A stretch of 11,069 nucleotides of DNA from a virus. Its lineage: Duplodnaviria > Heunggongvirae > Uroviricota > Caudoviricetes. Numbering within the stretch: position 1 is the first letter of the stretch; each line of letters starts with the position of its first letter. Position numbers and translations under genes: made by a program. The DNA is taken from IMG/VR virus record IMGVR_UViG_2585427777_000015; one strand, 5' to 3'. A model generated the notes under the pieces. It did no database searches and had not been told where the DNA came from. It saw only the letters and a list, made by a program, of their open reading frames with translations. This document shows, in pieces, positions 10,501-10,857 of this stretch.

Positions 10501-10528
10501 AAATAAAAAAGCCTTCACTGCGGAAGGC
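10501..10528 (-). terminator. Intrinsic terminator downstream of the small ORF
   Basis: Minus-strand hairpin GCCTTC-CGCAGT-GAAGGC (plus 10511-10528) followed by TTTTTTATTT (plus A-run 10501-10510). Confidence 0.55.
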
Positions 10529-10712
10529 GTCTGTAACAACCGAACTGATAGTCTGCCAGACCCGCCATAACCAGCTGGGTCAGTATTAACTGGCAGCGTT
10601 CGCGTGAAAGGTAAGTATTCTGCGCAATCTCCCCGACTGTCGCCGGGTCGTTAACGCTTAATTCATTAAACACTACTCTGGCGGTTTCTGTCATATCCTG
10701 CTGTTTTAGCAT
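10515..10712 (-). CDS. Small hypothetical protein (65 aa), possibly a winged-helix/HTH-like DNA-binding protein
   Basis: ATG at 10712-10710 with an upstream purine-rich stretch (GGAAAAGGGAAAAAGAC); MLKQQDMTETARVVFNELSVNDPATVGEIAQNTYLSRERCQLILTQLVMAGLADYQFGCYRRLPQ. The track's 94-aa version adds a Cys/Trp-rich extension that looks non-coding. Lies between two terminators; no family recognised. Confidence 0.4.
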   Translation of the reverse strand: MLKQQDMTETARVVFNELSVNDPATVGEIAQNTYLSRERCQLILTQLVMAGLADYQFGCYRRLPQ

Positions 10713-10832
10713 GTCTTTTTCCCTTTTCCGGTTAACGTGACACACCAATAACTCTTGTCGAAAAAGCCAGCAAGCTGAAAGACAGGTATTCACCGCCACC
10801 AGCGCGTTTACTGTACTGACGCGATTTCAGTC

Positions 10833-10857
10833 ATAAAAAACCCGCCAGGCGGCGGGG
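10833..10857 (-). terminator. tR'-like intrinsic terminator about 60 nt downstream of the PR'-like promoter
   Basis: Minus-strand hairpin CCCGCC-GCCT-GGCGGG (plus 10841-10856) followed by TTTTTTAT (plus A-run 10835-10840). Confidence 0.6.

Follow-up and report, generated by a model that had tools for sequence, protein, structure and literature searches.

Layout of the locus

The stretch of DNA analyzed here (the window) comprises the 11,069 nucleotides (nt) of the IMG/VR virus record IMGVR_UViG_2585427777_000015, assigned to the Caudoviricetes. It carries an open reading frame (ORF) of 65 amino acids (aa), which is situated between two predicted intrinsic terminators, T1 and T2, downstream of the end of an antiterminator gene Q and a PR′-like promoter, and upstream of the structured leader of a DNA methylase gene. 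An earlier note, made from the sequence alone, had described the ORF in this setting, and its coordinates and description proved correct except for the word “basic” (see below). Coordinates are window positions unless a locus is named, and all features of the window are described on the minus strand (Table 1).

Table 1. Features of the ORF-leader-methylase region of the window, and Com-like ORFs in related loci.
Feature	Position	Strand	Details
Antiterminator Q gene, 3′ end	10939..11069	minus	stop TAG 10941-10939
PR′-like late promoter (putative)	10906..10933	minus	-35 TTGATT 10933-10928, 16-nt spacer, -10 TAAATT 10911-10906
Hairpin at 5′ end of short PR′ transcript	10870..10902	minus	-13.6 kcal/mol, z -3.1
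T1, tR′-like intrinsic terminator (predicted)	10833..10856	minus	stem 10856-10841, U tract 10840-10833
Conserved block upstream of ORF	10737..10774	minus	CTTGCTG-N-(C/A)AGAGTTAT(T/C)(G/T)GTnTGTCAC; alignment of 23 loci
Shine-Dalgarno AAGGGA	10720..10725	minus	7 nt before ATG
65-aa ORF (PHROG 331), predicted minimal winged helix	10515..10712	minus	ATG 10712-10710, stop TGA 10517-10515
T2, intrinsic terminator (predicted)	10501..10528	minus	stem 10528-10511, U tract 10510-10501
Methylase leader RNA (~135 nt)	10365..10499	minus	three-way junction P1-P3 and hairpins P4, P5
Leader helix P1	10492-10488/10420-10416	minus	
Leader helix P2	10487-10476/10468-10457	minus	
Leader helix P3	10453-10446/10436-10429	minus	
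Leader helix P4	10415-10409/10403-10397	minus	
Leader helix P5	10396-10388/10378-10370	minus	
Beta-class N6/N4 DNA methyltransferase, putative M.EcoGI/II type, 349 aa	9315..10364	minus	PF01555 152 bits; PADLOC MTase_II 554 bits
Com-like ORF, Vibrio phage Valp1	L150:1840-1965		
Com-like ORF	L163:1340-1456		
Com-like ORF	L166:1354-1464		
Com-like ORF	L158:1358-1483		
Com-like ORF	L161:1329-1484		

The 65-aa ORF is a protein-coding gene

In a window holding 75 ORFs of at least 40 aa, the 65-aa ORF (product approx. 7.4 kDa: MLKQQDMTETARVVFNELSVNDPATVGEIAQNTYLSRERCQLILTQLVMAGLADYQFGCYRRLPQ) is by itself unremarkable. It was compared with 23 loci fetched from species-representative genomes of Escherichia, Salmonella, Klebsiella, Kluyvera, Citrobacter, Buttiauxella, Mixta, Mangrovibacter, Scandinavium and others, which together with two phage loci (L001, L002) and the window form a set of 26. 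The frame is intact, at 63–67 aa and with the same ATG, in 20 of the 23 genome loci, in both phage loci and in the window, and an AAGG/AGG-type Shine-Dalgarno sequence is kept at the same distance in most relatives. Synonymous differences are saturated in cross-genus pairs (pS 0.69–0.89), while replacement differences amount to pN 0.08–0.19 in the close subfamily and 0.35–0.38 in the divergent subfamily L022-L025. Since the most conserved peptide, RCQLILTQLVMAGL, keeps its residues despite being encoded with many synonymous changes, the constraint acts on the protein. A longer, 94-aa version with a GTG start (10799..10515) was rejected, as the in-frame upstream extension ranges from 2 to 72 codons in relatives and is not conserved.

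The earlier note did not recognize the ORF, which is in fact already annotated. Residues 1–64 of the protein align to positions 35–98 of the 111 positions in the hidden Markov model of PHROG 331 (E 5.9e-37, 126.7 bits), the ORF equals coding sequence L23 of the Shiga toxin (Stx) 2e phage phiP27, and the exact protein sequence is found on at least 1000 contigs, named either “TrmB family transcriptional regulator” or “hypothetical protein”. Of 5426 complete Escherichia coli genomes, 2284 (42%) contain a match to the 496-nt region that reaches from T1 to the methylase start, in up to 8 copies each. Homologs form 333 clusters at 90% identity across Enterobacterales; the family is nevertheless narrow, because only 58 representatives exist among 1.84 billion proteins clustered at 50% identity. 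A PADLOC scan for defence systems returned nothing meaningful for the ORF.

The ORF is short, lies in a window rich in ORFs and matches no curated family above threshold, all of which would suit a chance open frame in a late-operon spacer. However, this explanation is already contradicted by the pattern of conservation, that is, by the pN/pS values and the conserved start, Shine-Dalgarno sequence and length, in addition to the homologous clusters in several genera, the match to PHROG 331 and a confident fold prediction (see below); we regard it as having practically no chance of being correct. A frame that is not conserved where the DNA is had been named in the earlier note as the finding that would speak against a gene, and the reverse was observed. 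Judged by sequence comparison, the 65-aa ORF is a genuine protein-coding phage gene.

Predicted fold and conserved residues

Pfam searches yielded sub-threshold matches only, all of them to winged-helix families including DprA_WH, with 18.5 bits for TrmB (PF01978; gathering cutoff 25.6), 16.3 bits for HTH_24 (cutoff 21.9) and 16.9 bits for MarR_2 (cutoff 27). No NCBIfam model matches the protein (best E 0.11). The RefSeq name “TrmB” is therefore not backed by a curated threshold, and membership in the TrmB family was rejected on the score. AlphaFold2 (AF2) was run on 27 homologs and predicts the topology H1-beta-H2-H3-wing, with helices at residues 4–18, 26–32 and 37–49, a short strand after the first helix, and wing strands at 53–56 and 59–62; the mean predicted local distance difference test (pLDDT) score is 83.6 for the best model and 57–62 for the other four. 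In Foldseek searches, generic winged helices were retrieved, namely IclR-type domains (TM 0.75–0.80), MarR, SelB, Z-alpha and the N-terminal dimerisation domains of O-methyltransferases, none of them with E < 1e-3. Sub-threshold Pfam matches, AF2 and Foldseek agree in predicting a winged helix-turn-helix fold, as the earlier note had suspected in naming a helix-turn-helix, and the ORF product is a small phage protein of this familiar kind.

Residues R37, R39, C40–V48 and R62 are invariant or near-invariant. R37 and R39 lie where H3 begins, and K/R61-R62 are part of the wing, which are the usual positions of nucleic-acid contacts; in the model, R39 and K/R61-R62 would be the residues expected to make them. 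Together with conserved non-coding blocks nearby, the conservation of R39, K/R61 and R62 is compatible with a sequence-specific binding of the protein to an operator.

Upstream region: Q, a putative PR′ and terminator T1

The C-terminus of Q matches PF03589 (Antiterm) weakly, with 21.3 bits at a cutoff of 26.7 (profile positions 55–87 of 87), and the near-identical neighbour gene in phage Stx2_EH1910 (LC567834) is annotated as quuQ. The promoter following Q was assigned to PR′ by its resemblance to lambda: its -10 hexamer is identical to that of lambda PR′, and the TAATGATGGG after it resembles the lambda pause region AACGATGGG. With 8 of 12 matches, it was not called by a consensus promoter scan. 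T1 is formed by CCCGCC-GCCU-GGCGGG followed by UUUUUUAU (6 GC pairs, -12.6 kcal/mol, z -3.2) and T2 by GCCUUC-CGCAGU-GAAGGC followed by UUUUUUAUUU (6 pairs, -8.9 kcal/mol, z -2.05). Both have the predicted hairpin directly before a U tract on the transcribed strand, a structure kept in relatives. A terminator scan gave 4 sites where 2.1 ± 1.5 are expected; the ORF and the terminators are considered to be beyond chance because they are conserved in related loci. In order, the end of Q, a late promoter-like sequence and a terminator would correspond to the arrangement of a lambdoid late operon.

Transcription from PR′ to T1 predicts a constitutive short RNA of approx. 65 nt (span 10833-10911, minus strand) with a strong 5′ hairpin. 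By position, this RNA would be an analogue of lambda 6S RNA or StxS; it is not homologous to the downstream module and no Rfam family matches it. The hairpin itself is not conserved together with the downstream module, as homology to most phages begins only at T1.

A hairpin with a T run is located 83–128 nt before the ATG (mostly approx. 84 or 113–128 nt) in 20 of the 26 related loci including the window, with stems that differ in sequence among these loci; in the window and in L004, the best-scoring call is the upstream PR′ hairpin. For 22 phages with other Q types, megablast homology starts at query positions 211–215 (214 or 215 in 21 of them), which is essentially the first base of T1, indicating a mosaic joint at this terminator. 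Several types of Q gene are directly followed by the ORF.

Between T1 and the ORF lies the conserved block of Table 1, which can also be written CTTGCTG...AGAGTTATnnGTnTGTCAC. It is promoter-like, with a -35 hexamer TTGCTG (10773-10768), a spacer of 17 nt and a -10 hexamer TATTGG (10750-10745); of the two hexamers, TTG and TA, respectively, are conserved, and the distance between them is nearly constant although the spacer varies in sequence. All relatives have G instead of T at position 6 of the -10 hexamer, and conservation extends approx. 20 nt past the hexamer. No promoter was called in a scan of positions 9200–11069, the block included, and no significant RNA structure was found in it (z +0.57). 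The block may represent a weak or activator-dependent promoter, or an operator.

Terminator T2 belongs to the methylase module

The stop codon UGA of the ORF spans the boundary between loop and 3′ arm of T2, whose 5′ arm is made up of the last two or three codons. Across genera, this position of the stop codon within the hairpin loop is kept in 21 of 23 loci, although the C-terminal residues differ (RRLPQ, KRLQ, IRLRT, KRCH, TRCQ). The U tract of T2 is degenerate or absent in 10 of the 26 related loci. In E. coli-type loci without the ORF, a hairpin still adjoins the leader; it is of the T2 type in L066, and in L096, L080, L107, L091 and L131 other hairpins, or T1 itself, stand directly before the leader. 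Among distinct distant loci, 36 of 44 have an intrinsic terminator just upstream of the leader. Since a hairpin or terminator persists before the leader in both ORF-less and distant loci, T2 belongs to the leader/methylase module and does not simply serve as a terminator of the ORF.

It was considered whether the U-rich tail of T2 pairs over a long range with the loop of leader hairpin P5, as UUCUG/CAGAG seemed by eye to covary with UUUUG/CAAAA. This pairing was rejected, as no signal is seen in the duplex energies (matched pairs -4.51, permuted partners -4.41 ± 0.20, shuffled tails -4.60).

A structured leader precedes the methylase

The leader folds with -74.9 kcal/mol (z -4.0). Helix P1 (UGGGC/GCCCA) encloses the long P2 as well as P3, and the hairpins P4 and P5 come after it; the end of P5 is 5 nt away from the methylase ATG, a start codon without a ribosome-binding site of the AGGAGG type. 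In 17 loci outside the E. coli type, the leader gap is more conserved (mean pairwise nucleotide identity 0.86) than the ORF (0.70) or the methylase (0.74). Across 36 Enterobacterales leaders, 95.6% of the cells are paired as predicted, compared to 27–46% with slid partners, and one pair occurs with three Watson-Crick types (CG 19, UA 8, AU 7).

A covariance model of the leader was applied to 80 viral contigs with methylases 54–100% identical to that of Vibrio phage Valp1 and matched 51 of them on the coding strand, either directly upstream of the methylase or approx. 130 nt farther up when a small ORF intervenes. In these distant loci, compensatory double changes are found in 27 of 32 pairs, P1 being invariant, and the covariation score is 0.423 as against 0.142 ± 0.008 for shuffles (reached by 0 of 500) and at most 0.067 for slid partners. 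The alignment used here was fitted to the covariance model; an independent analysis of 22 diverse leaders with MAFFT and RNAalifold did not go beyond P1 and the upper part of P2 owing to misalignment, so that covariation over the full structure rests on the model-fitted alignment. Apart from sub-threshold chance matches, Rfam contains no family matching the leader of the window or of six other loci. The leader is a candidate for a new cis-regulatory RNA common to phages of Enterobacterales and of the Vibrio type, and it is the more novel and unusual element compared to the ORF.

Other readings of the leader and its elements were rejected. A leader-encoded peptide (60-aa TTG ORF 10539..10357, or an ATG inside the conserved AAATGGGCG) is interrupted by stops and indels in the P2 loop of relatives, e.g., by a TAG after 7 codons in L005, and the leader is therefore read as RNA. 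P4 was considered as a DNA palindrome for a dimeric protein, its central tetramers often being self-complementary (GCGC, ACGT, CGCG). Asymmetry is common among the copies (TAGCGCAA), and distant ones retain no more than the hairpin; P4 is regarded as an RNA hairpin. No leader feature was seen to be specific to loci with the winged-helix ORF.

In the E. coli-type leader, a mini-ORF of four codons (ATG ATC CAT GCT TAA; 10357-10371, minus strand) overlaps the methylase start out of frame. It is absent in other genera, which have TTACTGATCTATG at this place.

Linkage of the ORF to the methylase

The first 65 nt of the methylase together with the upstream region are 94.6% identical at the DNA level to phage 1720a-02, whose methylase is very similar to the 349-aa M.EcoGII (PMC5778455). 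M.EcoGII methylates adenine non-specifically; in the lysogen it is silent, and its constitutive expression is deleterious (PMC5778455). By length, class and the identity of its 5′ region to 1720a-02, the window methylase appears to be of the M.EcoGI/M.EcoGII type, and it is probably toxic to the cell.

Of 23 loci with an intact ORF, 22 have a methylase homolog 147–154 nt after it; overall, 24 of 25 related loci carry the methylase. Conversely, the ORF is present on 108 of 121 leader-containing viral contigs. This conserved linkage suggests that the ORF may regulate the methylase. The earlier note had also proposed testing for regulation of cargo genes; no link of the ORF to such genes was found. 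In phiSTEC1575-Stx2k (L028:2982-3695), a 237-aa “helix-turn-helix domain-containing protein” takes the position of the methylase, followed by tRNAs and stx2; homology of this locus to the window stops inside leader helix P2.

Among the distant loci, ten (listed as Valp1, L152, L154, L155, L158, L159, L163, L226, L202, L206 and L207) have an ORF of 77–98 aa upstream of the leader. The eight distinct sequences among them, when aligned, match the window family in a profile-profile comparison (hhalign probability 95%, E 3.8e-8), whereas one sequence taken singly did not. In view of this match, the association of the winged-helix ORF with leader and methylase is considered to be old. In many distant loci, the gene adjoining the terminator and leader on the upstream side is Q or an unrelated one.

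Vibrio-type loci contain a further small ORF of 36–51 aa between leader and methylase (Table 1), encoding a Cys4 zinc ribbon similar to the Com family of phage Mu. The ORF in L166 matches PF10122 with 27.5 bits (cutoff 22.9); for the others, Com is the best or a near-best sub-threshold match. These ORFs suggest a Com/Mom-like translational activation of the adenine methylase in Vibrio-type relatives.

Proposed expression and role of the ORF

We propose that Q gates the ORF as the first cistron of the late operon, that the terminators and the leader silence the methylase, and that the protein is a regulator or accessory factor of the methylase module. Taken as a whole, this proposal has in our view about an even chance of being right, and most of its uncertainty lies in the role of the protein. 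As the ORF is flanked by a tR′-like terminator and by the terminator ahead of the methylase leader, a dependence on Q-mediated read-through, already suggested in the earlier note, is the simplest reading. In the lysogen, RNA polymerase starting at the constitutive PR′ would halt at T1, and the ORF would be expressed mainly when Q-modified polymerase passes T1, late in lytic growth. After induction, read-through of T1 and T2 would thus deliver the ORF first, then the leader and the methylase. T2 forms the conserved 5′ boundary of the structured leader ahead of the M.EcoGI/II-type methylase, and the two terminators together with a leader lacking a recognisable ribosome-binding site would keep the harmful enzyme silent until Q acts. 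The protein would most likely be a nucleic-acid-binding regulator or an accessory factor of the module.

Several observations weigh against this proposal. The protein is acidic and not basic as originally described (isoelectric point 5.1, 6 K+R vs. 7 D+E, net charge -1), and just one of the five AF2 models is confident. Leader and methylase occur without the ORF in L066, L096, L080, L107, L091, L131 and many distant loci, and three E. coli phages or prophages retain the ORF but have lost the methylase. L202, with a winged-helix ORF upstream, and L193, with an unrelated one, have near-identical leaders, which makes a strict recognition pair of protein and leader unlikely. The promoter-like block between T1 and the ATG may allow expression of the ORF independently of Q, and for this reason the “tight gating” of the earlier note is at most tentative. 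Finally, a functional study of the ORF was not found in the literature, only mentions in annotations.

The block is central to the reading of the ORF as an autonomous cistron of the moron type, in which T1 insulates it from PR′, TTGCTG-17-TAT(T/C)(G/T)G serves as its own weak sigma-70 promoter and T2 ends the transcript. The protein would then be made in the lysogen without Q and act on the host or on a resident or incoming phage, e.g., as a repressor. The unit of terminator, block, ORF and terminator does move behind different Q types with its joint exactly at T1, persists without the methylase, and keeps TTG and TA of its hexamers at near-fixed spacing around a variable spacer. The negative promoter scan, the invariant G at position 6 of the -10 hexamer, the conservation beyond it and the degenerate or absent T2 U tract of many loci speak against this reading. 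So does the L202/L206 lineage, where only 23 nt lie between an upstream hairpin and the start of the homologous ORF, leaving no room for a promoter. We consider an autonomous cistron unlikely. If, on the other hand, the protein docks on the enzyme as a partner of the methylase, altering its activity, specificity or timing or shielding phage sites, its acidity and the loss of the basic residues of helix 3 in distant homologs would be accounted for, as would the deep linkage. Docking of this kind is known from the winged-helix domains by which small-molecule O-methyltransferases dimerise at their N-terminus. Among the best structural and profile matches are the winged-helix dimerisation domains of the SAM (S-adenosylmethionine)-dependent methyltransferases DsyB, PigF, SibL and RedM (PDB profile E 0.087, Foldseek E 2e-3). 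These matches are, however, non-significant and no better than those to the DNA-binding domains of IclR and MarR (TM 0.80), many methylase loci lack the ORF, and M.EcoGII is active alone when cloned (PMC5778455). A partner role appears quite improbable.

The overlap of stop codon and T2 raises the question of a role in cis, in which a ribosome stopping in the T2 loop occludes the 5′ arm and blocks the hairpin, so that translation sets the transcription of the leader and the product itself is secondary. Attenuation at pyrE/rph or pyrBI provides a precedent, and the position of the stop codon, kept though the C-terminal residues differ, as well as the last codons forming the 5′ arm, would agree with it. 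Yet purifying selection is strong over the whole protein, helix 3 being invariant despite synonymous changes, and a hairpin is kept where the ORF is absent; both points argue against a cis effect as the main role. Moreover, the ORFs of distant homologous modules end 50–90 nt before the terminator, and Q-modified polymerase is expected to ignore T2 anyway. A primary role in cis is very improbable. The same coupling enters a more far-reaching reading, in which ORF, T2 and the leader with its invariant core work together as a so far undescribed device that controls a promiscuous adenine methylase post-transcriptionally. Here, the protein, or a metabolite such as SAM or S-adenosylhomocysteine (SAH), may bind the three-way-junction leader and open the methylase start, or ribosome termination inside T2 may couple ORF translation to read-through. 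We think such a device rather improbable; if it existed, Enterobacterales and Vibrio phages would share a cis-regulatory RNA of a new class in this leader.

Prophage context and implications

Three tRNA genes, Met-CAT (ileZ-like), Arg-TCG and Arg-TCT, are located at 9265-9016 (minus strand), followed by the small RNA STnc100 at 8939-8730 (minus strand; 152 bits). They occupy the place of the tRNAs and stx in Stx phages; toxin genes are absent from this prophage. A 332-aa ORF with DUF1737 and SASA domains (8507-7509, minus strand), a truncated NanS-p-like esterase short for its family, lies directly before the tail genes M, L, K, I, J and lom. Esterase and tail genes are within approx. 7380-8507 and 1-7378 (minus strand), and megablast homology splits at approx. 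7602. Lysis, terminase and head genes are not present in the window, which looks like a deleted, defective prophage.

Taken alone, the ORF is ordinary, one more small winged-helix protein of a phage. It is found in about two of five complete E. coli genomes, and in Stx2 phages and phiP27 the same block of ORF, methylase and tRNAs lies between Q and stx (PMC7547250 and phage records). As a consequence of this position, which is shared by many Stx2 phages, every toxin transcript from PR′ passes the ORF, T2 and the methylase leader, and whether the ORF modulates read-through or methylase synthesis bears on Shiga toxin expression. The answer is also relevant to the safe use of a non-specific adenine methylase by phages, and M.EcoGII itself is widely used as a tool for chromatin mapping. 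With two terminators, an uncatalogued leader and Com-like ORFs in relatives, the module offers a testable case of multilayer gating of a toxic DNA-modifying enzyme.

Comparison with known systems

The C proteins of restriction-modification systems are likewise encoded by small genes of a DNA-binding type just upstream of a modification gene whose timing matters. C proteins are Xre-type helix-turn-helix proteins acting on C-boxes before the C and R genes; the ORF product failed the test for a C protein, being a predicted winged helix followed by an orphan methylase and tRNA genes, with no adjacent endonuclease gene. An antitoxin of a type II toxin-antitoxin system was rejected as well, since the genes do not abut but are separated by a fixed gap of 147–154 nt with a terminator and a structured leader. 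Compared to winged-helix factors such as TrmB, MarR and IclR, the protein shares the predicted H1-beta-H2-H3-wing topology, but with only 65 aa it has neither a dimerisation nor a ligand domain.

In its predicted expression, the locus resembles lambdoid late control by Q, PR′ and tR′ (lambda 6S RNA, StxS): Q is followed by a PR′-like promoter and, approx. 65 nt downstream, by a terminator, so that later genes would need antitermination. It differs in the coding cistron and second terminator inserted between tR′ and the remaining late genes, and the short PR′ RNA is not homologous to StxS. Morons of lambdoid phages, reportedly described by Juhala and Hendrix as units of promoter, gene and terminator such as bor or lom, are similarly compact, terminator-bounded units found on different phage backbones with a recombination joint at their edge. 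In contrast to them, the ORF has only a candidate promoter of its own, negative in the consensus scan, and shares its downstream terminator with the next module.

In outline, the arrangement appears most similar to com-mom of phage Mu. In both cases, a very small ORF stands ahead of a DNA-modifying enzyme that is harmful if freely expressed, expression is late and multiply gated (in the window, by prediction), and a structured mRNA precedes the start codon of the enzyme. The details differ: the window protein is a predicted winged helix with two cysteines (C40, C59) and not a Cys4 zinc ribbon, it has no match to PF10122 (Mu Com) at E up to 10, its gene does not overlap that of the enzyme but is separated from it by a terminator and the leader, and the enzyme is an adenine N6-methylase and not Mom. 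As both small ORFs co-exist in Vibrio phages, the winged-helix ORF and Com are not substitutes for each other.

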